From: an uncultured Nitrososphaeraceae archaeon
GTDB lineage: Archaea > Thermoproteota > Nitrososphaeria > Nitrososphaerales > Nitrososphaeraceae
Reading direction: 5' to 3'
Assembly (NCBI GenBank): GCA_963729045.1
Contig: CAVSMN010000014.1
Span: forward strand, 32,001-96,000
DNA length: 64,000 bases
The notes under the pieces: model-generated
Databases searched by the model: none
What the model was told of the DNA's origin: nothing
Seen by the model: the letters and a program-made list of their open reading frames with translations, nothing else
Shown here: in pieces, positions 9,302 through 58,896 of the stretch
How the letters are laid out: every line of letters begins with the position of its first letter
Position numbering within the stretch: the first letter of the stretch is position 1
Program-made: the position numbers and the translations under genes

Positions 9302-11180
9302 TTATTTCAATTTTTTGAGTAATTCTGGTACAGGTAATGTATTTAGAATATCATTTCTTCCTGCCCACCCTCTTCTTGCTTGTCCTATACCAAATTCCAA
9401 AAATGCATAATGCAGGGGGTGATGAGCATCTGAATCAACAACTAATTTAACTTCATTCTGTATAGCTGTTCTTATGTATTCATCACGTAAATCTAACCTG
9501 TTATAGTGAGAATCAATTTCCAGAATTGTGTTAGTTTCGTTTGCAATTGTCATTAATTTCGGAATATCCACAGGATAGCCATCTCTTTTATTAATGATTC
9601 TGCCAGTTGGATGAAAGATAATATCTACACTCGGATTTTGGGCTGCTTTAATTAACCTATTTGTTTGTACCTCTATTGGTTGAGAAAAATTAGAATGAAT
9701 TGCAGCACCTACTATGTCTAATTTATCCAAAATGTTGTTTGGAATGTCTAATGAACCGTCGCTAAGGATGTTTACTTCTGCTGAAGAAAGTATTCTAAAG
9801 TCACTCAAATTCCTTTCGCTTTTTTTTCTCTTCTTTTCGTAGTTGCTTGTTTTCCTTTCTAACTGTTTTTCTTCATTATGTTTATTTAGATCCACAAAGA
9901 AAGTACCGCTTTTTATTGAATCATTAAATTCTTGAATCTTATGTGCTTGGTCTAGTAGCTGTTGTTCGTCTAATCCCCTAGCGATTCTTAGGCTTTTTGT
10001 GTGATCTGTGATGGCGATATAATCAAGATTAAAATTCGTCATTGCAAAATATGCCATCTCTTTTATTGACATTTTCCCGTCCGTATTGTTTGAATGTACT
10101 TGTAGATCTCCTTTTATATCACCATACTTTATCAATCCTTTCATTTTTTCCTGCCACTCCTTTGACCCTTTCTTTGCTATCTCGATTTCTCCACTGTTTT
10201 CTCTCAATTCTGGAGGGATCCATTCCAACCCTAATTCATTGTACAACTGTTCTTCTGATTCGCCTGATATTTTTTGATCGGATTTAATATCAAATAATCC
10301 CCATTCATTTAAGCGAAGTGCCTTGGATTGTGCTAATCTTCGCAATGCTATTCCGTGTTCCTTACTTCCGGTAAAATATTGTAATGCTGCTCCATAACTT
10401 TCTTTAGGAACGACCAATAAATCGGAATCTAATCCATTATTAAATTTAATAAATGCTTTAGTACCACCTTTGCTTAGAATTTCTTTAACTTCGGGCATAT
10501 TTACGAATGAATTAATTACTTTATCTGGATTGTCTGAAACTACTAGAAAATCGATATCACCTATGGTTTCCTTCATTCTTCTAAAGGATCCTACTGCTGT
10601 TACAGTAGAAACGTTTTCCAAATTTGTTAAATATTTTTCTATTTGCTTTACCAATGGATAAATATCTCCAAGTAGATGCCTTTTTTTGCCTATGTTGTGT
10701 AATTCAATTCTCCTTAGTATTTTTTCTTCTTTTTTTTTAGAAATTCCTGAAATCCCGTTCAACTTCCCTTCTCTAGCAGCCCTTTCTAAATCACTGAGAT
10801 TTCTTATGGGTAACTTGTCAATTATTACTCTCAAAGTTTTCGGACCTATTCCTTCTAAGCCTACGAAATCATCTATCTTTATGGGGTATTTCGATTTTAG
10901 TATTTCATAATATTCAATCTTGCCTGTTTCAATATATTCTTCTATTTTTGAGGAGATTGCTTTACCAATAGAAGGAATTTGTATTAATCCATTAATCCCT
11001 CTTTCCTCATAAAGAGATGTAATACTTAGCGGAAGGTTATCAATTTGATCAGCTGCTCTAATATATGCTCTATTTTTGAAATTTAAATTAGTCTTGTTAT
11101 CATCATTATCATTATCCAACTCCAGTAGAAATGAAATCTTACGAAGGATATCAGAAATCTCTAGCGTTTGTAAGTTTCAC
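9302..11180 (-). CDS. polX: DNA polymerase X with PHP domain (frameshift near N-terminus, ~11165)
   Basis: HhH repeats, GSFRR..ETIGDIDFL, YFTGSKEH, and PHP motifs HS..TDG, TDH, DSDAH. Upstream GTG at 11180 joins via NLEISDILRKISFLLE after a 1-nt shift. Confidence 0.92.
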
Positions 11181-46976: not shown

Positions 46977-48098
46977 TTAAAGAGCATTTATTTTCTTTAC
47001 GATTGTAAGGACATCTTCATCAATAATTTTGTGTTCTAAGCCTACCTTTTGACCTCCAAATTTTACGCTTTTGCCCCATACCTGAGCGAACTTAAAGTCT
47101 CTGACCATGTTTCTGTGAATCTTGTTACAAATATTCTGGACAGTACTATTCCGAGGCATAATTAGAGGCTCTTCCAAATCGGCATCTTGTCCCTTGGGTT
47201 TCATATATATTCGAACAAAGTCTAATTTATTGTAGATTTCCCGTTTAAGAAGTTCTATGTTCTTGTTTGTGTCTGCCGACACAGCTGTATATGGAATTTT
47301 AAGTTTAGAAGTTGCCATCTTGAGATATTCTGTATCAACCAAATCTATTTTATTTATAACTGCTAACGAAGGGATGTAAACCCGATTCCCGGATAAAACA
47401 TCTATTAACTGGTCAATCGTAAGACCTCTTTCTCGTATGGTGATACGACCGTTGTGGATCCCGTTTATTCGCATCACATTTCTGATAAAATTTTCATCAG
47501 CTTGTATTGGAACCTGAATATTTACCGAAATACCTCCAGTAGCAGTCTTTTCTACAATAATATCAGGAGGCTTTTCATCAACCTTGACTCCTATTTCCGA
47601 TAGTTCCTTTTTTAAGACCTCAAGATGATTGATCTGGAATACATCTAGGACAATCAAAACTAAATCTGCATTTCTGGCAACAGATAATACTCTTTTTCCC
47701 AAACCTTTGCCCGCAGCAGCACCTTCAATTATACCTGGTAAATCCAAAATCTGGATCCGTGCACCATTGTAGTCTAACATACCTGGCACAGCAGTTAATG
47801 TAGTAAATGAGTATGCTGCTGTTTTAGATTTTGCGTTTGTTAATGCATTTAATAAAGTCGATTTCCCTACACTGGGAAATCCTATCAAGACGACAGTGCC
47901 ATCGCCGGCTTTTCTAACGTCAAAGCCCGCACTGCCTCCTCCAGTAGCGACGGTCTTTCCATGGGTATTTTCCTCTTGTTCTTTCTTTAACTTTGCTATC
48001 TTGGCCTTTAGAATGCCTACGTGGAACTCAGTCGCTTTGTTTATCTGAGTTTTGTGTATCTCATCTTGAATGGCCTGGATTTTCTCTGGTATTCCCAT
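46977..48098 (-). CDS. drg: DRG-family OBG-type GTPase
   Basis: TQINKATEFH, GFPSVGKST, DLPG, NKID and C-terminal TGS domain. Confidence 0.95.
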   Translation of the reverse strand: MGIPEKIQAIQDEIHKTQINKATEFHVGILKAKIAKLKKEQEENTHGKTVATGGGSAGFDVRKAGDGTVVLIGFPSVGKSTLLNALTNAKSKTAAYSFTTLTAVPGMLDYNGARIQILDLPGIIEGAAAGKGLGKRVLSVARNADLVLIVLDVFQINHLEVLKKELSEIGVKVDEKPPDIIVEKTATGGISVNIQVPIQADENFIRNVMRINGIHNGRITIRERGLTIDQLIDVLSGNRVYIPSLAVINKIDLVDTEYLKMATSKLKIPYTAVSADTNKNIELLKREIYNKLDFVRIYMKPKGQDADLEEPLIMPRNSTVQNICNKIHRNMVRDFKFAQVWGKSVKFGGQKVGLEHKIIDEDVLTIVKKINAL

Positions 48099-48168
48099 TG
48101 GTTTTAATATTAGTCTATAAAAATAACAATAAAAATTTTGTTAATAGTGTCTTAGTTGTCCCCCTTAG

Positions 48169-48624
48169 TTATTTCAATACCATAAAAAATTTCAGACCGT
48201 ATACTACTGCAACGGTGGTAATGAATCCTAGCATTCCTAACCATGGCAATGCCGGAATTTTGGGGGTTTTTATTTTTATTTGATGATCTTCTACAATATT
48301 TGTGATGTAATCCTTGACAATTGAATGCCATAATTGATATTCGATACGGTGTTTTTTTAAGATGGTCTCAATTTCATATACCACAGGAACTCTTACTGAT
48401 TTTATATGCTGTAAATAATTTCTAGAGATTTCGACCTCCGCATGGATTCCAATCAAACCTTGATTAAAATCTAGGAGTCTTACATGCATTTCCCATGGTT
48501 TTTTTAGTTTTTTTGAGAACCCACTACCAATTTGAGTAGGCTTTTTATGTTCAAATTTTACCATTTTAAACCCTTCAGAAACTAATGTATTGACAATTTC
48601 ATCTTTTCTTATTTTAACCATCAA
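48169..48624 (-). CDS. Hypothetical protein with C-terminal TM helix
   Basis: PWEMHVRL..HAEVEISRNYLQH; hydrophobic tail. Confidence 0.7.
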   Translation of the reverse strand: MMVKIRKDEIVNTLVSEGFKMVKFEHKKPTQIGSGFSKKLKKPWEMHVRLLDFNQGLIGIHAEVEISRNYLQHIKSVRVPVVYEIETILKKHRIEYQLWHSIVKDYITNIVEDHQIKIKTPKIPALPWLGMLGFITTVAVVYGLKFFMVLK

Positions 48625-48794
48625 AAATAAATAATCTCAGCTCGACCTCTTCTCTTTTAATAAGGTTCTGAATCCCTTGTAGAAGATTCATTCTTCTAGG
48701 ATATAATGTAGAAAATTCAGCCATGAACAGTTTTCTCCAATTACAATTGATATAATATTGTTTGACTATTTATAATTTAAAAAATTAAAACTTT

Positions 48795-49646
48795 TCAAAT
48801 ATATGATGGAGCTGTTCTCTTTGAAAGTCCTCGTACATAAATGTCAAATTTGCTATCCATGTTCAAGGTATCACTCGAGACAGGATTGTCAGTCATCTTA
48901 ATATTTAATCCCCTTATTATTATGACTGGAGTCGACGCGTCAGATTCTCCCATTATCATCGTCCCGAGGGAAGCCAGACAATCGGCAAGATTTTGAGATG
49001 TATATTTTAGAACATTTCCAAAAAGATCAAAAGTCCCTTTCAGGTCTATTACTGGTTCAAACCCGCAGCAAGCTAATGCAACGCCTACTGTACCTTTTCT
49101 CATAGGTAAGATTCTACTATCCGACAATACTATCCCGACCCTTTTCAAGGAATTTACCAAAAATTTCTGTTTGAGGATCTCTATGGAGTGGTACGGATAT
49201 TTTGGATACAAAACAACACTACCTTTGGGCACGTTTGACTTATCAATGCCTGCATTAGGCGCCAACACTTTATGAATAGATGTTAGAACAAAGCCATATA
49301 GTCCACCAAAAATTTCATCAGACTCCCTGAGAATTAGTTCCATCATTTTTGGATCTATGTGATAAAGTTTAGATGCTTGAATAGCCTGACTACTTGGTTT
49401 TATCCTAGTTAATTTCTTGATCCTACCTTCACTTATCGAAAGATATTTGCTTGATATAACAAGCACATCGTTATCTTCGATGTTTATTTTTCCTATGTTC
49501 TTGCTAATTTTATCATACAAATCAAATTCTGATGATTCTCTATCTAGGTGGATGGGAATAACTTCCAAATTATGGTATTTCTCAAAGCAATCTATATAAT
49601 TAATTTTATTCTGATTGACTTTAAATTCTTCAAAAGCTAAATTCAA
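48795..49646 (-). CDS. cofE: Coenzyme F420-0:L-glutamate ligase
   Basis: DVLVISSK..SISEG, PNAGIDKSN, SDSRILPMRKG and MGESDASTP motifs. Confidence 0.9.
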   Translation of the reverse strand: MNLAFEEFKVNQNKINYIDCFEKYHNLEVIPIHLDRESSEFDLYDKISKNIGKINIEDNDVLVISSKYLSISEGRIKKLTRIKPSSQAIQASKLYHIDPKMMELILRESDEIFGGLYGFVLTSIHKVLAPNAGIDKSNVPKGSVVLYPKYPYHSIEILKQKFLVNSLKRVGIVLSDSRILPMRKGTVGVALACCGFEPVIDLKGTFDLFGNVLKYTSQNLADCLASLGTMIMGESDASTPVIIIRGLNIKMTDNPVSSDTLNMDSKFDIYVRGLSKRTAPSYI

Positions 49647-49686
49647 AAAGTATTAATCATTAGCAGTCATATTTAATAATATTACT

Positions 49687-50964
49687 ATGGGAATGACATT
49701 AACCGAAAAAATCCTAGCTCATTCCTCAAATTCTAAAGCGGTTACTCCTGGAGACATCATCTTTTCCAACGTTGATAAAGCGATGATTCATGATGTATCA
49801 GGTCCTGGAGTTATCAAGGTGTTTAAGGAATTGGAAAAAAAGGGCTATAAATTGGAAAAATTATGGGACCCTGATAAAGTATGGATTTCTGAAGATCACT
49901 TTGTTCCAGCCTCCGATAGAATTTCTGCTGACAATGTGATACAATTAACAAAATGGGCTCAAAAATATGGTATTAAGAAACACTTCAAGTATGGAATGGG
50001 ACAATATGGCATTTGTCATACGATTTCTCATGAAGAGGGGTTAGTGTTACCTGGAGAAGTTTATGTTGGTGGAGATTCACATACTAATACTACAGGTGCA
50101 ATTGGTGCTTTTAGTGCAGGGCTTGGTCATACAGATATTGCCTATGTCTTAAAACATGGCAAAATTTGGTTTAAGGTACCAGAAACTATGATGTTTAAGG
50201 TAACAGGAAAAAAACCAGATTATATTATGGCCAAAGATATTATCTTGAATATTATTTCTGATATAGGGACTGATGGGGCAAATTACAAGGCGATGCAATT
50301 TAGTGGTAGTGTTATAGATGGTATGGAAATGGAGGAAAGATTTACTTTAACTAATATGACAACTGAGGCAGGTGCAAAAAACGGAATAATTGAACCAGAT
50401 AGCACTACTGTAGATTATTTAAGGACAAGACTCGGGGCATTAGACTTTAACCTAATTAAAGGAGATCCAAATGCCGAATTTAGTGAAATATTTGATTATG
50501 ATTGCGAAAAAATGGAACCTTCTGTGGCAAAACCATACTCGCCGGAGAATGTTGTCCCCGTAAGAGAGGTTCAAGGCACAGAAATAGACAAAGCCTATAT
50601 AGGATCTTGTACTGGTGCAAAGCTTTCTGACCTCAGATCTGCAGCCAAGATCTTGGAAGGAAAAAAAGTTAAAGTACGAACCGAGGTGCTCCCTGCTGCT
50701 CAATCAATCTATATGAAGGCTATTAAAGAGGGCTTGGTTACCATTTTTATGGAGTCTGGGGCAGTTATTGGTCCACCTACATGTGGAGCTTGTTGCGGTG
50801 CTCATATGGGTGTTTTAGGAAAGGATGAAATTTGTGCAAGCACGACTAACAGAAATTTTCCAGGTAGAATGGGAGATGTAACGTCGCAAACATATCTTGC
50901 CTCCCCGATGGTTGTAGCTGCGTCAGCGATTACCGGAAAATTAACGGACCCGAGGGATTTATGA
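49687..50964 (+). CDS. leuC: 3-isopropylmalate/homoaconitate dehydratase large subunit
   Basis: GMTLTEKIL, DSHT, IGSCT, CGACCG and STTNRNFPGRMG motifs. Confidence 0.93.
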   Translation: MGMTLTEKILAHSSNSKAVTPGDIIFSNVDKAMIHDVSGPGVIKVFKELEKKGYKLEKLWDPDKVWISEDHFVPASDRISADNVIQLTKWAQKYGIKKHFKYGMGQYGICHTISHEEGLVLPGEVYVGGDSHTNTTGAIGAFSAGLGHTDIAYVLKHGKIWFKVPETMMFKVTGKKPDYIMAKDIILNIISDIGTDGANYKAMQFSGSVIDGMEMEERFTLTNMTTEAGAKNGIIEPDSTTVDYLRTRLGALDFNLIKGDPNAEFSEIFDYDCEKMEPSVAKPYSPENVVPVREVQGTEIDKAYIGSCTGAKLSDLRSAAKILEGKKVKVRTEVLPAAQSIYMKAIKEGLVTIFMESGAVIGPPTCGACCGAHMGVLGKDEICASTTNRNFPGRMGDVTSQTYLASPMVVAASAITGKLTDPRDL

Positions 50965-51455
50965 TGGTTTTAAAAGGTACTGTGCATAAATACAATAGGC
51001 CGAATATAGACACGGATGTTATAATTCCAGGTCCGTATCTAAAAATTCATGATCATGACGAACTTGCAAAACATGCCATGGAAGGATTAGATGCTAATTT
51101 TATAAACAAAGTTTCAAAAGGTGATTTTCTCTTGGTGGGTCATAATTTTGGGTGTGGATCTAGTAGGGAACATGCTCCAATTGCTCTATCAAAAACGGGT
51201 ATTAAAGCTATTTTGTCTCCATCTTTTGCAAGAATCTTCTACAGAAATTCTATAGATGGTGGTTATTTACTACCAATTGAAATTGAAGAAAATATTTTGG
51301 AAAAAATAGATGATAAGGATGAAATAGAAATTAATTTAGACACGAATACCGTTTTCAACGTTACTAAAAAAGAATCTTATCCAATCAAACCATTTAGTAA
51401 AATAATTTCTGATATCATAGAAGCCGGTGGGCTTTTTAACTATCAAATCCCTTGA
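50961..51455 (+). CDS. leuD: 3-isopropylmalate/homoaconitate dehydratase small subunit
   Basis: NIDTDVIIP, NFGCGSSREHA and SFARIFYRN motifs. Confidence 0.93.
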   Translation: MMVLKGTVHKYNRPNIDTDVIIPGPYLKIHDHDELAKHAMEGLDANFINKVSKGDFLLVGHNFGCGSSREHAPIALSKTGIKAILSPSFARIFYRNSIDGGYLLPIEIEENILEKIDDKDEIEINLDTNTVFNVTKKESYPIKPFSKIISDIIEAGGLFNYQIP

Positions 51456-51516
51456 AAAATATCAAAGCATTCAATTAAAAATGAATACTTTTTAATTTTC
51501 ACAAAATTCAAAGAAG

Positions 51517-51990
51517 CTAGTCGGGATGTACTTTACTAATGTAGGAATTTGATGATTGCAATATGCTTGCAGGATTTAGGTACTCAAAATCTAATTTATT
51601 TTGAGAATGATAAAACATAATCTGTTTCTTTCTTTCCTCGTCTATAACATCTGAGTTAGAGTAGTATACTACGAGCTCAAATAAATCCAACTCTTCGAAT
51701 CGTTTTACATGGGCCATCTGTATATCCCCGTGTTTAAAACACATTGAATGTGCCAAGGCACATGCAAATTCAAAATTCTTTCCCCTGAAATTTTCGATTA
51801 CAAGATTCGAGGATATCGTTTCAAGCAATTCGATTCTATTTGATTGATGGCTGATATCGTAATTATTTTGCATGGTTTCGCCTACTATTTTGTTCTCAAA
51901 TAATATTTTTATTTCGCATTTATTAAAAAACGATTCCATCAGATATTGCCGGCTCCGTCTCATTAAAGAATGATGCAGTCTCCAACTCAT
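51517..51990 (-). CDS. Hypothetical protein
   Basis: 157-aa ORF with no motif I recognise. Confidence 0.55.
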   Translation of the reverse strand: MSWRLHHSLMRRSRQYLMESFFNKCEIKILFENKIVGETMQNNYDISHQSNRIELLETISSNLVIENFRGKNFEFACALAHSMCFKHGDIQMAHVKRFEELDLFELVVYYSNSDVIDEERKKQIMFYHSQNKLDFEYLNPASILQSSNSYISKVHPD

Positions 51991-52144
51991 TTATCTTGTG
52001 GAATTATTTACTAGTCTTCTTGAATAGTCTTTTAACACTTAATATGAAATAGCTTTAATGCAAGAAAAAAATATTTTAGGTTGAATAATCTCGCAAAAAA
52101 CCGGTTCTAATCGAATCCGATTGAAATTTCTCATACTTTATTTG

Positions 52145-52756
52145 TCACGAGTAGGTTCCAGTCAAGTCTCTATATACCTCAAGTGCACTTTCTATATTAT
52201 TATTTATAATAGAATGAAATACTTTTCCACTAAAAGAATAACTAACCAAAAAAGGTTCATTTGTTATAATACGCAATCCATTCCCAGAGAACTGGACACT
52301 ACCGGTGTTTTTGGGCTCGTCAAGCAGATTAGTTGGAATTACCGCAGTATCGTTAATAGGAAATGTATATAGTGTTCCAAATTGGACAGGCAGTTTCAAG
52401 CTATTATTTATAGTCAATATATTCAACGATTGTATTTGTACGGGTTTACTCGAAGTAAAAGTCAATACTCCTGAATAAGTAGTGCTTTCATTTTTGACTG
52501 GGAAAATAAAAAATGATTGTTCAAGCCCTGAATTGTGAAAGACATCAGGATTTGAGGATACTGTTCCACTAAAAGAAACGTCCTGAGATCCTTGACTGGT
52601 ATTATTCATGCTAACTGTGGCGAAAACAGAAAGTGAAAAACCTGGTGTTACATAAATAAAAAAAATTACTAATAGTACAATTAGAGTGAGCCTTGGCATC
52701 CTAAAAAATGAACTGCATTGGCACTTGTTGCTGTTATAGATTGATACTTTGATCAT
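52145..52756 (-). CDS. Exported hypothetical protein
   Basis: Signal peptide (likely start MPRLTL) and a beta-rich body (YSGVLTFTSSKPV). Confidence 0.65.
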   Translation of the reverse strand: MIKVSIYNSNKCQCSSFFRMPRLTLIVLLVIFFIYVTPGFSLSVFATVSMNNTSQGSQDVSFSGTVSSNPDVFHNSGLEQSFFIFPVKNESTTYSGVLTFTSSKPVQIQSLNILTINNSLKLPVQFGTLYTFPINDTAVIPTNLLDEPKNTGSVQFSGNGLRIITNEPFLVSYSFSGKVFHSIINNNIESALEVYRDLTGTYS

Positions 52757-52807
52757 TGGACTAATTAAATATTTGATTCTATGGTTGATAATTAAAACTA
52801 TTAGAAT

Positions 52808-52996
52808 TTATTGAGTTAAATCAACAATGCTCTTCTGAATTACTTGCTTGGCTTCATTTGAAATATTATAACAATCAAGTATTTTTTTTGGGCTCCTAAT
52901 CAGTCGTTTCCTGAATTCGGGTTCACTGGCTGCCTTAAGTAAAATCTCGCTTATAACTTCAGCTTCTATATTGATAGAACTCAAGTAGTTCCTCAA
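52808..52996 (-). CDS. NHLP-clan (Os1348-like) small protein
   Basis: EILLKAASEPEFRKRLIRSPKKILDCYNISNEAKQVI matches the NHLP leader pattern (I.KA..DPEFR.RL..DP..AL..Y.L..E); divergent from ycaO. Confidence 0.72.
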   Translation of the reverse strand: MRNYLSSINIEAEVISEILLKAASEPEFRKRLIRSPKKILDCYNISNEAKQVIQKSIVDLTQ

Positions 52997-53143
52997 GAGG
53001 AATTATATTATATATACTTTTACTATTCCCCTCTGCTTTTTATGAACCATTAATCCATCTATGCCCTTTGATTTAGCATTAACATCATAGTCAATCCAAT
53101 AATTAAAATAATATCTTATAGAAATGATGAATGTAAATTCTTA

Positions 53144-54488
53144 TTGAAAACTACATCTCAATTATTATTGAAATCTCAAAAAAAATGGAATGCGATGGGT
53201 ACATCTAGAATCCAGCCAGTAGAACAAACTTTGGAAAAAGTAAATTCCTTGATTCAGGAGATTGGGATTACAAGAATTGCAGATATTACAAATATGGATA
53301 GGCTTAAAATACCTAATTTTTCAGCCGTATTACCAGGAACTGAAGACTACATCTGGGTATATAGTGGAAAGGGTCCGACGAAAAACCATGCAAGGGCTAG
53401 TGTTATCATGGAAAGCATTGAAAGGTTTTCATCATTACCTGCAAATTTCGACGGAAAAATTCAAAGGGGCACTTTTAAAGAATTATCTCAAAGTTATACT
53501 GTTCTAAAATATGATGAAGTAGTGGAACCAGTTTCATTCCACTTGAATGAAGAAATGATAATGGATTATTGTATCGGTTATGATTTATTAAATAACACAG
53601 AAGTATTGGTGCCTGCGCCATTAACAATTTTCAGATATACTCCGTCGCCACCATCCATAAATCCTTACTCCTTCTTCCATACAAATGGATTGGCTTCTGG
53701 GAATGTAATCGAAGAAGCAATTTGTCATGCCCTATGCGAAGTTGTAGAAAGGGATGCAGTGAGTTTGGCGGAATTCACTTCTAGTGCATTTCAGTATCAT
53801 ATCTTGAAAACTGTTGAAAATTCGCTTGTAAAGAAGGGGTTTTCAATTAAAGTCATTTGACTCAAAGAACTTTATGGATGATGATTCTATTTATCCCGAA
53901 ATTGATCTGAACAGTATCGAACACGTTCCTATTAAGAGAGTCGTTAATAGGTTTAGGAGTTCTCAAATATCCTTGACAGTAAAGGATATTACATCCGACC
54001 TCGGAATTCCAACTTTCATAGCAAGTAGTGCCGAGTGGGTTAATCATGAATATGGATATTTGGTAGAAGGTCATGGAACTCATCCAGATGCACGAATTGC
54101 ACTTATGAGGGCAATAACAGAAGTATCCCAATCAAGAGCAGCTAATATTCAAGGTTCGAGGGATGATCTAAGAAAGATGAAATATGATCCTGAAAATAGT
54201 GATGAAAACAGATCATGGCAATTCATAAAGTCAAAAGAAAAAAAATCATTTTCAGATGTTCACACATTTACCTATGATGATATACTAGATGACATAAAAC
54301 TTATACTGAGTAGTTTAAAAGCAAAAGGTCTAAAGAAAGCTATCGTGGTAAACTTGACTAATTCAAAATTAAATATACCAGTTATTAGAGTCATTGTCCC
54401 TGGATTGGAAACATTCAAAATAAATAAAGCAGTTATCGGTCAAAGAGCCAAGGAAAGTGTTAAAAAATGGTTAGGTCCAAACCTGTAA
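53144..54488 (+). CDS. ycaO: YcaO-family protein, TfuA-associated thioamide synthase type (frameshift at ~53850)
   Basis: GITRIADIT..DRL, YSGKG, MESIER, TNGLASGN..EEAICHALCEVVERDA, RAITEVSQSR, GSRDD and PGLE motifs; no C-terminal PxP motif. Confidence 0.93.
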
Positions 54489-55128
54489 TATTTTTAGGAC
54501 CGTCTCTATCAAGGGAGAAAGCAAGAAAAATTCTAGACGCAGATTACCGACTACCTGCTAAAAAAGGGGACCTGCTTCAGTTGATACTAAAAGAAGTTGA
54601 TATTGTTGGATTGGTTGACGGATATTTTCTTCAGGATTATCCCCCTACCCCAATTGAGGTATATAATTTAGTCCGAAAAAGGAATGTAAAGGTTTTTGGA
54701 TCATCGAGTTTGGGTGCACTTCGGGCAGTCGAACTTGGTAAATACGGGATGATAGGAATAGGAAAAATTTTTAGACTTTTTAGGGATGGAATCTTGGAGT
54801 CTGATGATGAAGTAGCTGTGACGTTTACGGATTATACAAATTACAAATCAGAAGCATTGATTGATATTAGATACAATTTGTTTTTGGCTCAAGAAATACA
54901 AGATCATAGACAATAGAGACCGGAAGATCGATCCTTAAAGTATCAAAACAGACCTATTTTCCTTATAGGACTTACGAAGATATTTTGGACAAATGTAAAT
55001 TAAAGTATCCTGAAATCAATTCTCAGGTTGAAAGTTTTAGAGGTTATATCTTGAATAATAAAAAGAGTTTGAAGGAAAGAGATGCTGTGCGATTATTAAA
55101 GCACATCAAGAGTATCAATGAACCATGA
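54467..55128 (+). CDS. tfuA: TfuA-like protein (frameshifts at ~54893 and ~54914)
   Basis: VIFLGPSL, PAKKGDL, LVDGYF, GSSSLGALRAVEL, DDEVAV and SEALIDIR motifs; continues YFPYRTY..SLKERDA to TGA at 55128. Overlaps the ycaO stop. Confidence 0.93.
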
Positions 55129-55180
55129 CATCAATAAAGTTAATTTTATATTCGCTACAATTTAACTAACAGTACTGCTC

Positions 55181-55761
55181 ATGAATAATATGTTGACCAA
55201 TTTTTTTCATAGTATTGATTCACGTTTTATTTACATAGTATTTTTCTATTTTTCAGCATTTATGATGCTGTATATAACAATGTTTGGAATGTATTGGAGT
55301 TGGGTGGAATATGATAAAACCGGTGCATTAAATATAGGCGAAACAATCGTAAAGAACGATTTAATCTTTGATGGATCTGGCAAATTGGTTACTTATCTTG
55401 CAATTTTCTCAGTTATCACATGGTTTTGTGTTACCAAAATCGGTTATAGCAGAGTACAAGAATACACCTAAAATAGTTCGATCAGTATTATCTGTATTAT
55501 GCAATTATCTTGATAGTCGTTGCAGCTTATGAATTTACTTACAATTTTACGGTGTGGGGAGCGTTGATTACTGTACATACAATCAATAACTCTTTGAATT
55601 TTGATGAAATCAATATAAGTTATCCTAACCCTGAAACACCATGGAATTTAGTTTTCGCAACTAAAATGACTCTTGCGGCTCTTATAATTTCTTGCCATGC
55701 TTTTTACATCATTCAAAGATCAGACAAGAAATCATCTATTTACGTGAAAGAACAGTCCTGA
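55181..55761 (+). CDS. Multi-pass membrane protein (frameshifted at ~55460-55505)
   Basis: Two consecutive hydrophobic ORFs; C-terminal PWNLVFATK motif. Confidence 0.6.
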
Positions 55762-55770
55762 AGTACTGCG

Positions 55771-55841
55771 CTCATCTCAATCTCCATCCTCAATCTATCC
55801 TCATCTCATCCTCAATCTCCATCCTCCAATCTCCACCTCCA
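55771..55841 (+). repeat. Degenerate CT-rich microsatellite-like tract
   Basis: Units such as CTCAATCTCCATC and CTCATCTCATC; no G for about 70 nt. Confidence 0.7.
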
Positions 55842-56090
55842 AAACTCCTCTGTTGGGGCACATGTAGATAAAACCTGGATTCTATTGAAAAAATAAATCA
55901 AAATTTATGAACTTGAGAAATCAAAAGTATTTGGAAATTGCTATCCACAGAACACTAGAACTGCTTAACGTGTACTACATTTCAATATTTTGATACTTGG
56001 TATTTTTAAGTTGTTTCTTGAATGTTTTCTTTCCTGGTGTCACTTAAGAAAATCACAAGATTTTTTATGATGATTAGAAAACTATTGATA

Positions 56091-56645
56091 GTGAAAATCG
56101 GCGTAATCTCAGATACCCACGATGATATTGAAAATACTGAAAAAGCAATAAATATTTTTAACTTGATGAAGGTAAATCATGTTTTTCATGCAGGTGATTA
56201 CGTTTATCCCGGGATGATTAGTTTATTCAAGAAATTAGACAAAGAAACAAAATTTTATGGGGTTCGGGGGAACAATGATGGGGAATTAATGGGTATCACA
56301 AGACAGTTCGATGAAATTGAAAATGCTCTATTTCTAAACGAATTTGGAAAACTCTTGATTTCATCAAAAAAAATAGGCATATATCATGGAACAAACTCTG
56401 ACTTGTCAGAATCCTTAGTGGAAAGTCAATTATTCGACATTTTAATACTCGGTCATACCCATATCAAAAGAATTGAAAAAATGGGAAAAACCCTTGTGTT
56501 AAACCCCGGAGCTTTGAACAGGAATTTCTTTTCTAAAAAAACTACTGACGATCCTTGTGTAATCGTCTATGATGAAAAACGGAAATTGGCCGAATTTATA
56601 AACATTAATAGTACCAAGAACACAGAGTATGACTTTGGAAAATGA
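56091..56645 (+). CDS. Metallophosphoesterase (YfcE/MJ0936 family)
   Basis: ISDTHD, HAGD, GNND, YHG, GHTH and NPG motifs; GTG at 56091 is the likely start. Confidence 0.92.
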   Translation: MKIGVISDTHDDIENTEKAINIFNLMKVNHVFHAGDYVYPGMISLFKKLDKETKFYGVRGNNDGELMGITRQFDEIENALFLNEFGKLLISSKKIGIYHGTNSDLSESLVESQLFDILILGHTHIKRIEKMGKTLVLNPGALNRNFFSKKTTDDPCVIVYDEKRKLAEFININSTKNTEYDFGK

Positions 56646-56818
56646 TTTGAACTTTGCACTTTGATTCCTTATATATCAGCTCAAATGAGTTTTCCATAGT
56701 AGATTCATAGTGCAAAACGCAAGAACAACAACAACGAAAAAAATATTAGTTGATACTAGTTACTTCTACGATTAAATCACTCAAGGTAAATAATATATAA
56801 AATCATTGATATGGTACT

Positions 56819-57172
56819 TTGTTATCACATGAACCGAGGGAAAAAGTGGAATTGAACGAAACAAGTTCTGATAAAAACAGTAACATCGATAATACTATAA
56901 AAGTAAATGATGATCAAACTACTCAAGTTAAAAATCAAACTAGTCATGATATTAAAGCCAATGAGGAAATTTCGGATGAGACACTTGCTGCCAAAGGTCC
57001 AACGAATCTTGATAAGGAAAATCTCACCAGTGCTGATCTGAAGACAAAGTTAACTTCAAACTATTTTTGCTTCGATTGCGGAGCGGTGTTGACTACCTTA
57101 GAAGACAAAAAACAACACGAATTATTCGAAATTGAAAGAAAGGATCGAAATGATTTAGAGAATGGTGATTAA
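56819..57172 (+). CDS. Hypothetical protein with C2H2-like zinc finger
   Basis: Disordered N-terminus, then YFCFDCGAVL...KQH. Confidence 0.6.
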   Translation: MLSHEPREKVELNETSSDKNSNIDNTIKVNDDQTTQVKNQTSHDIKANEEISDETLAAKGPTNLDKENLTSADLKTKLTSNYFCFDCGAVLTTLEDKKQHELFEIERKDRNDLENGD

Positions 57173-57275
57173 CTAAGAAAAAGGAATGAAGCAAATACTG
57201 TAATACATTATTGTTTTTGTTCACTGTAATATTTAGGGACCAGGCCCTTCTTTTTTGATTGTTATGATATATTAG

Positions 57276-57608
57276 TTAGGTATCATTATGTTCATATCTT
57301 TGAATATCTATAACTACTTTATCCCCAACCTTGATCTTTAGATCGTCATATTCTTTCATGGTTACTTTGAAAGTAGGGGCATCGCTTACTGCGCCTCCAC
57401 CAAACATATTAGAGATATTTGACATGGCTTTAGGCAGATTCTTCATAAGGTCTTCAGGAGAAGTAAAAGCCATTACATTGGAACCAAAAGGATTCATTTG
57501 CTTATCACCAGATTTTAAATATTCATTTGGATCCTTGAATGATACGTATATATAAGGAGAACCATCAGTGGATGCTTCAATTTTGGCAACTATGAATTCT
57601 TTTTTCAT
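57276..57608 (-). CDS. Hypothetical protein, possible arcadin-1-like fold
   Basis: FIVAKIE..DGSPYIYVSF / MAFTSPEDLM / FGGG..PTFKVTMKEYDDLKIKVGDKVVIDI. Confidence 0.6.
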   Translation of the reverse strand: MKKEFIVAKIEASTDGSPYIYVSFKDPNEYLKSGDKQMNPFGSNVMAFTSPEDLMKNLPKAMSNISNMFGGGAVSDAPTFKVTMKEYDDLKIKVGDKVVIDIQRYEHNDT

Positions 57609-57657
57609 TTATACTTATTAGTGATAATCGATATAATAAATATTTAATTCTAAAAAA

Positions 57658-58896
57658 TTAAGAGATTTTATATATACTTCCACTTTCTAAGGAAACGATA
57701 TATATATCTCCATCTGGACCTGTTTGAATGTCAGTAATGCTGCCAAACCCTGTTCCTAAAATGTAACTATTTAATTCTTCCTCTGAATCAATAATAGCGT
57801 CCTGTATTTCCAATCCGTCTCTTTGGTCATTTAATTTAAAAAAATACAGGTTACCATTATTATTATCTCCTACTAAAATATTGTTGGTGTAGTCAGGTCC
57901 TAGGTTGGTACTATTGATGAATTCTATGTCTGTGATCGCAGTGGGTTCAAGCCAACTTATCTCTGGATCTGAATAGTTAGAATTGGGTGAAAGGAAGACA
58001 AGATCTTTTATTTCGTCAGCTGATGCAGCTGGACCCATTATTGATCTCCAACCGCTATTAAATCCAGGCTCGACCAGATTTATTTCATCAGAAAAGGATG
58101 GACCATTCTCTGTGTCCCAGACATCTCCGGTAATCGGATCTACAGTAAGACCAAAGGAATTTCTAATACCGTATGCAAAAGTTTTATCAATATTAGGAAC
58201 ATCGCTCCCTACAAAGGGATTATCGACAGGTGCAGAACCTGTATGTGGATCAATCCTGTAAATAGAACCAGTATAGTCTGGATCTCCTCCATTCTCAAAA
58301 TTCTGTAATTTAGTTCTGTGGTTTAAATCCCCTATTATGGCGTAAAGATTGTTGTCTTTGCCTAGAGTTATCTTACCACCATTGTGATTTGGTCCAGGTA
58401 TGGCGGGCAAATCTAAGATCAACTTTTGATTAGTAAGATCAGTACCATCCCATTCAAAACTATACACTCTATTACGCAAGTTCTCATTGGGGTCTGTCAC
58501 GGTTTGATCAGCGTCGTTTTCGGTAACATAAAAGAAAACTAGTGTGGTGTTATTTTCCTTCATTACTTCCACTCCTAATAAACCGCGTTCACTTTCAAAA
58601 TTGACGTCAAATTGCTTCAACGGAGTATCCTGTAATATGCCATCTGAAATTAATTTTACGTTACCTTTTTTTTCAATTACTATGATATCCTTTCCAGAAT
58701 CGTCAAGAAATGCCATTCCTGTAGGCGACGTAAAACCCCTGTAGACTGGTTGCAAACTGAGGTTCGGATCTTTTATAGTCTGAGCACTAATCAATCCAAT
58801 ATCAAGTGACTTGGACTGGGTGATCAATAAAATCAACAAGCAGGTCCACACGGTCAATAGGCCAGTACAGCATAAAGACCTAAGTTTTAAAGCCAT
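57658..58896 (-). CDS. PQQ-dependent sugar dehydrogenase (GSDH beta-propeller)
   Basis: SPTGMAF, ERGLLG, NHNGG, YGIRNSFG and ENGP..DEIN..GFNSGW motifs. Confidence 0.92.
   Translation of the reverse strand: MALKLRSLCCTGLLTVWTCLLILLITQSKSLDIGLISAQTIKDPNLSLQPVYRGFTSPTGMAFLDDSGKDIIVIEKKGNVKLISDGILQDTPLKQFDVNFESERGLLGVEVMKENNTTLVFFYVTENDADQTVTDPNENLRNRVYSFEWDGTDLTNQKLILDLPAIPGPNHNGGKITLGKDNNLYAIIGDLNHRTKLQNFENGGDPDYTGSIYRIDPHTGSAPVDNPFVGSDVPNIDKTFAYGIRNSFGLTVDPITGDVWDTENGPSFSDEINLVEPGFNSGWRSIMGPAASADEIKDLVFLSPNSNYSDPEISWLEPTAITDIEFINSTNLGPDYTNNILVGDNNNGNLYFFKLNDQRDGLEIQDAIIDSEEELNSYILGTGFGSITDIQTGPDGDIYIVSLESGSIYKIS

Follow-up and report, generated by a model that had tools for sequence, protein, structure and literature searches.

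A predicted three-gene YcaO-TfuA module with a small NHLP/Os1348-clan protein in a soil ammonia-oxidising archaeon

The window analysed here, a stretch of 64,000 nucleotides, carries what we read as a predicted working three-gene module of soil ammonia-oxidising archaea, made up of ycaO, tfuA and a divergently transcribed gene for a small protein. It is likely that these genes form a thioamidation module that is intact and in which YcaO is bound by the small protein, a statement common to the two leading readings of that protein, as a subunit or as the substrate. Gene content, conservation, linkage, clan homology, the insertion contrast and the genome-wide frameshifts are observed; the binding, taken from a structural model, and the chemistry, the target and the role of the module are inferred.

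As predicted from the protein families, YcaO would activate a backbone amide using ATP, TfuA would pass on sulfide equivalents taken from a thiocarboxylate of ThiS type whose gene lies elsewhere, and the two together would produce a thioamide. The protein of 58-62 amino acids would be a core-less relative of the NHLP/Os1348 leader helical bundle and would be dedicated to this YcaO as a partner: its third helix and the conserved KAAxEPEFR face would pack on an insertion of about 35 residues in the enzyme. Once docked, this leader-like subunit would recruit the substrate or activate the enzyme in trans, and the thioamide would go onto another protein.

Gene layout and the YcaO and TfuA families

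The ycaO gene (53144..54488, + strand), encoding a TfuA-associated YcaO predicted to carry out ATP-dependent amide activation, and tfuA (54467..55128, + strand), encoding its putative sulfide-delivery partner, overlap by 22 nt on the same strand, as judged from the ORF listing and the sequence. The small gene (52808..52996, - strand), a 62-codon open reading frame encoding a helical protein of the NHLP/Os1348 clan, stands head-to-head with ycaO across a gap of 147 bp; an overlapping pair with a head-to-head 62-aa gene about 150 bp away is what the preliminary description of this DNA had reported. In the deposited sequence YcaO is read in two pieces (53144-53860 and 53874-54488) and TfuA likewise in pieces (54467-54916 and 54985-55128); intact orthologues are 444-450 and 218-236 amino acids long, respectively.

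Both halves of YcaO exceed the gathering score of the YcaO superfamily model PF02624 (25.7), the first with 110.7 bits (E 1.2e-31, profile positions 1-147 of 325) and the second with 123.6 bits (E 1.4e-35, positions 153-325 of 325). The stretches S-x3-E-x2-E-R and E-x2-E-R-D, which we take to be the acidic ATP/Mg-binding motifs of YcaO, are intact in the first piece, as had been claimed earlier, and residues S86, E90, E93, R94, E199, E202, R203 and D204 are invariant in 17 YcaO orthologues. The closest solved structure is that of M. jannaschii MJ1094 (E 5.2e-37), and no second YcaO locus was found in the genome. The two halves score 158.2 and 138.8 bits against TIGR03266, the equivalog model for the McrA-glycine YcaO (cut-off 365), and an intact orthologue, at 295.2 bits in two stretches, also falls below that cut-off; NF040716, a relative of E. 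coli YcaO, gives a weak match (38.3 bits; cut-off 700). The first TfuA piece scores 95.1 bits on PF07812 (E 3.2e-27; cut-off 30) and 151.2 bits on NF033432 (cut-off 235.2), for which an intact orthologue reaches 206.9 bits. Since the Pfam cut-off is passed and that of NF033432 is missed, the protein is assigned to TfuA and not to the McrA-type equivalog.

A family scan of ten neighbouring ORFs returned a metallophosphoesterase and sub-threshold matches, and nothing else. In particular there was no match to ThiS/ThiF, RRE or protease families, in agreement with the preliminary description, and none of the tailoring enzymes, transporters or exporters by which a thioamitide cluster would be recognised; ThiS-family genes are encoded elsewhere in the genome. 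Outside the genus, no gene neighbour other than the small gene is kept with YcaO-TfuA. The upstream ORFs of 203 and 157 aa and a downstream membrane protein were considered as partners and rejected, being syntenic within the genus only.

The host assembly consists of 22 contigs with a completeness of 87% and contains amoA. A search for MCR (PF02249) gave no match in this 87% complete genome, and control methanogens were matched; MCR was likewise not found in 5/5 related module-bearing genomes.

The small protein and its predicted docking on YcaO

The small protein is 62 aa long when read from the first TTG and 58 aa when read from the second, at 52984, which is invariant and is the more likely start. 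Codons 6-62 give a pN/pS of 0.158, and codons 2-5 show a pS of 0.19 compared with 0.67 for the rest. The gene occurs in 24/24 same-genus genomes at 74-97% identity, with no second copy found in this genome, and is annotated publicly as hypothetical and nothing more. By these sequence comparisons, it is a real gene under purifying selection. The divergent intergenic region (52997..53143, 147 bp) holds a conserved TATA-like, A/T-rich element (53003..53021) that lies upstream of the small gene and reads AAAAG-TATATATAATATAA on the minus strand; AAGTAT[A/T]TATAT is conserved among 25 sequences of the genus, between about -22 and -10 relative to the first TTG. The TATA-like element is presumably an archaeal promoter, which would imply a leaderless start. 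Six RNA runs had small word shares with the stretch (0.09-0.19).

The preliminary description had seen in this protein the NHLP leader signature. As a single sequence it scores below the curated cut-offs, with 19.8 bits on TIGR03793 (NHLP leader, cut-off 50.9; E 5.2e-4, residues 12-41, profile positions 3-32 of 77), 18.1 bits on NF038399 (Os1348, cut-off 40; E 0.002) and 20.9 bits on PF14407 (cut-off 48). Moreover, no family member, the closest representatives included, reaches the curated NHLP or Os1348 cut-offs. At the profile level, in contrast, the relationship is clear: a profile of 26 family members matched nitrile hydratase alpha chains in the PDB (4ob1_A, E 5.9e-9; 1v29_A, E 3.6e-7) as well as the NHLP leader chain 9cjx_A (E 0.0037), the family profile reaches proteins that lie above the TIGR03793 or NF038399 cut-offs, and hhalign aligned the family with Os1348 members at 99.2% probability (E 1.5e-19, residues 6-55). 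Profile comparison thus places the small protein in the NHLP/Os1348 clan, with homology to nitrile hydratase alpha; the reported signature survives as clan homology between profiles and is weak in the single sequence. A single-protein scan for bacterial Os1348 context found a single locus (33% identity), which falls within or across a membrane-protein ORF and has no RiPP context.

An AlphaFold2 model of the small protein (pLDDT 81.8) has helices at residues 2-24, 26-34, 36-41 and 47-61. A Foldseek search of the PDB with this model gave nothing significant (best E 2.5; 8TB1 at E 4.7 over 32 columns with an rmsd of 1.4), and a wide VIA-align comparison gave a best Z of 5.9 among generic helical matches, likewise not significant, with SonA 9cgw_B at Z 4.9 and an rmsd of 1.4 over 43 residues. 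These fold matches were rejected because small helical bundles give such scores by chance. The window protein is devoid of glycine and its C-terminus lies inside the last predicted helix; neither a core peptide nor a cleavage motif, Gly-Gly or other, of the kind expected in a RiPP precursor was found in it, and the C-termini across the family differ and have no motif in common. Within the segment 35-47, L40 and Y43 are invariant and P36, K38, I39, I45 and S46 nearly so.

Co-folding of the small protein with YcaO gave a score of 0.84, compared with 0.00 for the best of three controls; that mark is reached by 116/157 solved complexes and by 2/215 mismatched pairs. The result is one model, given as contacts with no coordinates; it was obtained with our own alignments, and the broken window gene was replaced by the YcaO of a relative that is 96-97% identical (G022). 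Between runs, at least 95% of contacts agree, and the partner pLDDT is at least 84. The modelled interface joins YcaO residues 216-248, 439 and 443-444 to residues 8-34 and 48-61 of the peptide; it has 80-82 contacts, 74-77 of them confident. No contacts were modelled at the YcaO active-site stretches 86-94 or 199-204, and the small-protein segment 35-47 lies outside the confident contacts. The co-folding therefore predicts that the peptide binds YcaO.

The predicted docking site is the YcaO insertion of about 35 aa (~53783..53888, + strand; orthologue residues ~214-248), a stretch that contains one extra base in the window. In the alignment with M. jannaschii MJ1094 this region stays unmatched, 48 residues of the query standing opposite 14. 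Three aligned YcaOs of family f12, an MCR lineage, lack the insertion, and five YcaOs from small-protein-bearing genomes have it. The one f12 YcaO that was scored passes TIGR03266 with 491.9 bits in one stretch, compared with the 295.2 bits of the orthologue of the present gene. The f12 genomes have MCR alpha in 4/5 and amoA in 0/5, whereas the insertion-bearing genomes have amoA in 5/5 and MCR in 0/5. The MCR-bearing relatives in the order thus appear to have a methanogen-type YcaO and neither the small protein nor the insertion, which provides a natural contrast inside one order.

Two readings of the small protein share this predicted binding, and we lean towards a subunit over a substrate. 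That the small protein is a docked subunit, with the thioamide placed on another protein, is a reading to which we give slightly less than an even chance. It is supported by the point at which the protein ends, about 7 residues past the Os1348-aligned region, since Os1348 members run on for 20-35 residues; by the variable C-termini of the family, which have no common motif; and by the mostly confident modelled contacts, all of them away from the active-site stretches. A more specific proposal, held somewhat more tentatively, is that a leader domain was domesticated: having lost its core, it would serve as a trans subunit of YcaO-TfuA on a purpose-built insertion, directing the thioamidation of a housekeeping protein.

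The other reading, possible although rather doubtful, is that the small protein is the substrate: YcaO-TfuA would thioamidate a residue of this folded chain of 58-62 aa, perhaps one in the loop 35-47, and in a model without coordinates a substrate pose is conceivable. The outcome would be either a small thioamidated protein that acts inside the cell or, as the preliminary description proposed, a minimal RiPP. A small gene beside modifying enzymes is the classic precursor arrangement, the clan is one of RiPP precursors, and outside the genus nothing else is conserved with the pair; on the other hand, the small protein has no core, cleavage motif or conserved tail, and there is no protease or exporter in the ten neighbouring ORFs. 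The segment 35-47 is strongly conserved and lies outside the confident contacts, as a modification site might, but its conservation also fits the general NHLP/NHase fold signature and the modelled contacts do not include the active-site stretches. Lineages that lost MCR carry in its stead the small protein together with the docking insertion, and recognition of a folded protein via a large surface is reported for E. coli YcaO and uL16 (PMC13063428), both of which would suit a substrate. A secreted RiPP is the less likely product because there is no core, cleavage motif, protease or exporter and because conservation is vertical and single-copy, which is unlike secreted RiPPs. The earlier proposal of a minimal thioamide RiPP or protein-modification system is therefore supported overall, with the secreted product as its weaker half.

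Frameshifts and linkage across the order

Against 5/5 nearest relatives, the window has one surplus base each at ~53833, ~54893 and ~54917. The first splits ycaO over two frames, and the other two split tfuA over three. The two YcaO pieces share one frame in 18/19 relatives' loci, and both TfuA pieces do so in 18/18 relatives where both were found. Were the frameshifts real, ycaO and tfuA would be pseudogenes in this strain and the small gene would be orphaned, a reading that we regard as very improbable. In its favour are the three frame-breaking bases in the deposited window and the fact that no public run covers the stretch fully (best word share 0.74). However, in metagenome contigs of about 99% identity from four independent studies, all 12 indels listed (of 30) run in one direction, omitting window bases and never adding any; these contigs represent near-identical populations from samples other than that of the assembly. 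The base near 53833 is missing from contigs of public runs X3 and X6, and in tfuA the base at 54890 is omitted in contigs of runs X1, X3 and X6; the extra base at 54917 is outside the 12 indels listed, and for it the numbers of gaps in records 6 and 15 are no more than compatible with an omission.

The same bias extends beyond this locus. Single-base insertions outnumber deletions in the window by 23:5, 18:8 and 27:8 against three relatives, 25 of 123 sampled orthologues of a complete relative (20%) are split over frames in this assembly, and 23/30 of the frame transitions are +1. The completeness is just 87% although the assembly has 22 contigs. Moreover, the broken halves still show 91-97% protein identity to five of the nearest intact orthologues (L032-L036). 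On these comparisons the three frameshifts almost certainly reflect bases wrongly inserted in an assembly rich in errors, and not pseudogenisation; strain-specific loss of ycaO/tfuA is unlikely. The frameshifts had been treated as repairable errors from the outset, and contigs of public runs without the extra bases, together with an assembly frameshifted genome-wide, uphold that treatment.

In 200 further genomes of the order, the small protein and TfuA occur together in 57, the small protein alone in one and TfuA alone in five, and 137 lack both; these are related genomes, with few independent events behind the counts. The small gene adjoins YcaO-TfuA in 40 of the 57 genomes with both. Together with its presence in 24/24 genomes of the genus, this confirms the conserved linkage of the trio for which a synteny check had been proposed. 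In the remaining 17/57 the genes are unlinked yet both are kept; these cases comprise one genus (14 genomes), two genomes of a family-f9 genus and one further genome. In the unlinked genus the neighbours of the small gene differ between genomes and give no lead; named by eye, they include a membrane protein, a secreted-looking protein and a DNA-glycosylase-like ORF. The module is widespread among soil and thermophilic ammonia oxidisers. In family f13, TfuA was found in 0/40 sampled genomes, and amoA is present in the one f13 genome tested.

That the small protein has nothing to do with the pair beside it, being for instance a small regulator, and takes no physical part in thioamidation is in our view the least probable explanation and a highly improbable one: divergent transcription and the separation from YcaO-TfuA in the unlinked genomes would fit it, but the presence or absence of the gene follows TfuA (57/1/5/137), the co-fold stands well above its controls, the docking insertion is confined to small-protein-bearing lineages among the YcaOs compared, and DNA-binding families in Pfam and NCBIfam gave no match.

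Comparison with known systems

The occurrence of YcaO-TfuA in ammonia oxidisers is already published. In Nayak et al. 2017 (PMC5589413) the YcaO clade with the McrA thioglycine enzymes includes ammonia-oxidising archaeal homologues, and a thioamitide survey counts eight TfuA clusters in Thaumarchaeota (PMC8120280). In the open-access main texts searched, we found no account of the small partner, and no target of the ammonia oxidisers' YcaO-TfuA was named. The small partner, the lineage-specific docking insertion and the contrast with the MCR-bearing lineages make the question of the target testable, and give a concrete lead on what these archaea thioamidate. According to PMC13063428, protein backbone thioamides are known in two proteins only, MCR and ribosomal uL16; if the proposal of a domesticated leader is true, the target would be the third. 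As an adaptor, the small protein would be a natural example of a leader working in trans; as the substrate, it would count among modified proteins as unusually minimal.

Thioamitide clusters of the thioviridamide type resemble the present locus in having a YcaO-TfuA pair beside a small gene. They differ in that here a variable core is lacking, the ten neighbours scanned include no further tailoring enzyme, transporter or protease, and conservation is vertical and single-copy. The E. coli YcaO, which thioamidates ribosomal protein uL16 and recognises the folded protein via an extensive surface (Rice et al. 2026, PMC13063428), offers a likeness in primary metabolism rather than natural-product synthesis, but works without TfuA and without a small partner.

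The Os1348 family (NF038399) shares profile-profile likeness with residues 6-55 of the small protein. Its members continue for 20-35 residues beyond, and 9 of the 20 aligned end in a conserved DIRI/DIRY tail, whereas the archaeal protein stops after about 7. With NHLP leaders the small protein has in common the homology to the N-terminus of nitrile hydratase alpha, the all-helical prediction and a bundle of about the size of the whole small protein, the first ~60 residues of the proteusin/NHLP leader forming a rigid tri-helical bundle in the 8TB1 solution structure (PMC10858898). In contrast to those leaders, it has no disordered leader part, LxxxxL, Gly-Gly or core, and is paired with a TfuA-type YcaO.

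The closest parallel among the enzymes is the McrA thioglycine YcaO-TfuA of methanogens and ANME, which belongs to the same two families in the same overlapping gene order and supplies the best NCBIfam matches (TIGR03266 and NF033432). The present system differs from it in that the intact orthologues miss both equivalog thresholds, with 295.2 bits where 365 are required and 206.9 where 235.2 are, no MCR was found in the host genome, and the YcaO bears the insertion of about 35 aa and has a small NHLP-clan partner.

Locus layout and the frameshifts in ycaO and tfuA

The host genome (G000; 2.85 Mb in 22 contigs, rated 87% complete, G+C 33.8%) carries an archaeal amoA, and a search of this 87%-complete assembly for MCR alpha gave no match. 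The organism is thus an ammonia-oxidising archaeon, in keeping with the preliminary description, which had placed the module in an archaeon without MCR. The small gene is a minus-strand ORF of 62 codons (52808-52996), separated by a 147 bp divergent spacer from ycaO, which lies in two pieces (53144-53860 and 53874-54488). The tfuA gene overlaps ycaO by 22 nt and is also broken (54467-54916 and 54985-55128). Both enzymes were confirmed by Pfam and NCBIfam: the two YcaO halves cover positions 1-147 and 153-325 of PF02624, with TIGR03266 (methanogen McrA-thioamidation YcaO) as the best NCBIfam model, and TfuA matches PF07812 and NF033432. The layout first described, overlapping ycaO and tfuA with a small gene head-to-head about 150 bp away, is therefore borne out. 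A genome search found one YcaO locus only and one copy only of the small gene. Beside the latter lies a 203-aa ORF (52145-52756, minus strand) with a hydrophobic N-terminal segment, 30-95% conserved within the genus only, for which a family search gave no match.

The preliminary description had noted intact ATP/Mg motifs once the indels were repaired. The YcaO pieces share one frame in 18 of 19 relatives' loci and the TfuA pieces in all 18 where both were found; intact orthologues measure 444-450 aa (YcaO) and 218-236 aa (TfuA). DNA alignment placed single extra bases, missing from the five nearest relatives, at about 53833, 54893 and 54917 of the window. No public run covers the stretch completely (best word share 0.74). 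Contigs from four runs (soil, sediment and rhizosphere; four studies), ∼ 99% identical to the window, were compared over 48000-58000, and no confirmation of the frameshifts was found in them. All 12 listed indels are bases absent from the contigs and none is an added base (18 more are unlisted); the bases left out include 53836 (runs X3 and X6) and 54890 (X1, X3 and X6), and contig records 15 and 6, both of which span 54917, contain three and two gaps, consistent with the third extra base. Against three relatives, one-base insertions and deletions in the window stand at 23:5, 18:8 and 27:8 (9.7-17 kb). The genome-wide rate was estimated from 169 ORFs of at least 200 aa, drawn from a 400 kb portion of a complete genome in the genus. 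G000 has an orthologue for 123 of them; 97 of the 123 were recovered whole in one match, and 25 are split over frames. With one repeat protein dropped, 23 of 30 frame transitions are +1, and the extra base usually lies outside homopolymers. A fifth of genes are broken, and a single extra base is nearly always the cause; this pattern argues for an insertion-prone consensus and not for biology. Judged from these sequence comparisons, the frameshifts in ycaO and tfuA are almost certainly assembly errors, and real pseudogenisation is very improbable.

Because the frameshifts run genome-wide, any apparent pseudogene in G000 should be distrusted; further frame-split examples lie at C14:85195-87125, C7:81298-85091 and C12:207959-209463. 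This error rate probably also explains why completeness is rated at 87% with just 22 contigs. Downstream of tfuA, a gene at 55181-55761 (plus strand) is read as two ORFs, of 96 and 83 aa. Its counterparts in relatives have both parts on the same strand with 327 nt between them, and the public-run contigs are one base shorter near 55460 and again near 55499. This gene, with synteny limited to the genus and no family match, is probably one hydrophobic protein of ∼ 190 aa broken by a similar error. A frame change also occurs near the ycaO 3' end in L044, a same-genus locus (G018:C14, about 10052-10053).

The small protein and its NHLP/Os1348 relationship

As a single sequence, the small protein scored below the cut-offs for NHLP (19.8 bits; cut-off 50.9), Os1348 (18.1; 40) and PF14407 (20.9; 48). 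A profile of 26 family members (alignment A1), however, matched bona fide Os1348 members over residues 6-55 with 99.2% probability (E 1.5e-19). Its PDB matches were to nitrile hydratase alpha chains, at E 5.9e-9 or weaker, and to 9cjx_A, an NHLP leader chain, at E 0.0037. Among 1.84 billion proteins the profile found 105 representatives at E ≤ 1e-3, including 23 at ≤ 1e-10; its more distant matches passed the curated cut-offs for NHLP or Os1348, which the close ones missed. With strong profile-level matches and single-sequence scores under the cut-offs, the small protein belongs to the NHLP/Os1348 clan but to neither family, so the relationship originally proposed stands at clan level.

An Os1348 subgroup of ∼ 70 aa (database proteins P0025, P0044, P0063, P0069, P0072, P0082, P0084, P0086 and P0097) shares a C-terminal [S/N]-D-I-R-[I/Y], which has the look of a fixed site for modification or recognition. 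P0030 (2738 aa) appears to carry repeated NHLP-like motifs, nine separate stretches matching A1 (E 4.8e-9). Further, weak matches to A1 occur in a second, 92-aa ORF of a complete Nitrososphaera-like genome (G182:C1:387713-387874, E 0.0018) and within ∼ 460-aa ORFs from f12, an MCR-bearing family of this order (G088:C18:4453-4608 and G096:C109:17842-17997; E 3.6e-4 and 0.0013).

All 24 same-genus genomes carry the small protein at full length (identity 74-97%), and its pN/pS is 0.158 over codons 6-62. A conserved AAGTAT[A/T]TATAT element lies upstream, from about -22 to -10 as counted from the first TTG, and codons 2-5 show low synonymous change (pS 0.19 vs 0.67 for the rest), which makes the second, invariant TTG at 52984 (58 aa) the likelier start; the transcript is perhaps leaderless. 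The predicted structure is all-helical (pLDDT 81.8; helices 2-24, 26-34, 36-41 and 47-61). The sequence contains zero glycines and ends ∼ 7 residues past the region aligned to Os1348, whereas Os1348 members continue for 20-35 residues, and comparison of the archaeal C-termini revealed no shared motif. In a published NMR study (PMC10858898), the rigid helical bundle of the leader is distinct from the disordered, enzyme-binding part and the core. The archaeal protein, all-helical and ending where it does, would thus correspond to the rigid helical bundle only of a proteusin-type leader. In seven clusters whose public names were looked up, every named member is a hypothetical protein (Nitrososphaera, Nitrosocaldus and Thermoproteota records).

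Co-occurrence across the order

Among 200 other genomes of the order (small protein counted at E ≤ 1e-8), both the small protein and TfuA were found in 57, the small protein without TfuA in one, TfuA without the small protein in five and neither in 137. Completeness is 67% for the one genome with the small protein alone. Of the five with TfuA alone, three are f12 genomes, and in the other two TfuA sits at the end of a contig. By family, small protein and TfuA occur in 40/40 and 40/40 genomes of f1, 8/9 and 9/9 of f4, 10/11 and 10/11 of f9, 0/40 and 0/40 of f10, and 1/40 (one weak, short match) and 0/40 of f13. Synteny of the trio was also recovered, the small gene being adjacent and divergent to the pair in 40 of the 57 genomes with both; since related genomes are not independent, this co-occurrence represents only a few evolutionary events. 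In the remaining 17, of which 14 make up one genus, two come from an f9 genus and one is a further genome, both genes are kept yet unlinked, lying far apart or on different contigs. No other neighbour of the pair is conserved outside the genus.

Predicted docking and comparison with known pairs

The preliminary description had suggested a co-fold with YcaO-TfuA; here the small protein (A1) was co-folded with YcaO, whose intact sequence came from the nearest relative (alignment A2, 17 rows). With the best of three controls at 0.00, the runs scored 0.84, 0.85 and 0.84, a mark that solved complexes reached in 116 of 157 cases and mismatched pairs in 2 of 215; the runs share at least 95% of contacts with a partner pLDDT of at least 84. 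As a model, this supports binding of the small protein to YcaO, and to our knowledge no YcaO-NHLP complex has been solved that the model might be reproducing. The modelled interface joins YcaO 216-248, 439 and 443-444 to small-protein residues 8-34 and 48-61, including the invariant A22, A23, P26, E27 and R29, and leaves the YcaO active-site stretches 86-94 and 199-204 outside the predicted contacts. An alignment revealed a ∼ 35-residue insertion, the predicted docking site, in five YcaOs from small-protein genomes (g1, two of g21, f4 and f9).

By analogy with their families, YcaO would activate a backbone amide with ATP and TfuA would act on a ThiS-type thiocarboxylate to release sulfide equivalents (PMC13063428); three ThiS-family matches lie elsewhere in G000. 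The small protein probably docks as a folded unit on the insertion. We tentatively favour, at somewhat under even odds, a docking subunit that resembles a leader and acts in trans, the thioamide being placed on another protein, because the small protein lacks both a core and a conserved tail, its fold and interface account for its conservation, and the modelled pose leaves the active site untouched. That the small protein is itself the substrate is somewhat less likely but also finds support: this is the more economical explanation, PMC13063428 offers a precedent in folded uL16 recognised by E. coli YcaO, and the model gives contacts only, loop 35-47 not being placed with respect to the ATP site. 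Secretion as a RiPP antibiotic seems unlikely, with no protease or exporter among the ten neighbouring ORFs scanned, no variable core, and single-copy vertical inheritance. Of the two options first envisaged, a thioamide RiPP and a protein-modification system, a secreted RiPP product is the less likely.

The YcaO-TfuA pair of ammonia oxidisers is already published (PMC5589413), and PMC8120280 gives eight clusters in Thaumarchaeota; in the open-access article texts searched, no description of the small partner or the insertion was found. In M. jannaschii MJ1094, the closest solved structure, only 14 residues lie opposite YcaO residues 213-260, and the insertion is absent from three aligned f12 YcaOs. 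The one f12 YcaO scored exceeds the McrA-type equivalog cut-off of 365 (491.9, one stretch), whereas insertion YcaOs score 295.2 and 284.7 in two stretches. MCR alpha was found in 4/5 f12 genomes, including all three with TfuA, and in 0/5 insertion genomes; amoA in 0/5 and 5/5, respectively. By gene content, the f12 genomes (G070:C53, G088:C29/C38, G112:C5/C28 and G096:C44) are MCR-bearing relatives of ammonia oxidisers. This contrast within one order indicates that the MCR lineage keeps a plain methanogen-type pair, whereas MCR-less ammonia oxidisers have the insertion and the small protein, a module through which what MCR-less archaea thioamidate is directly testable.
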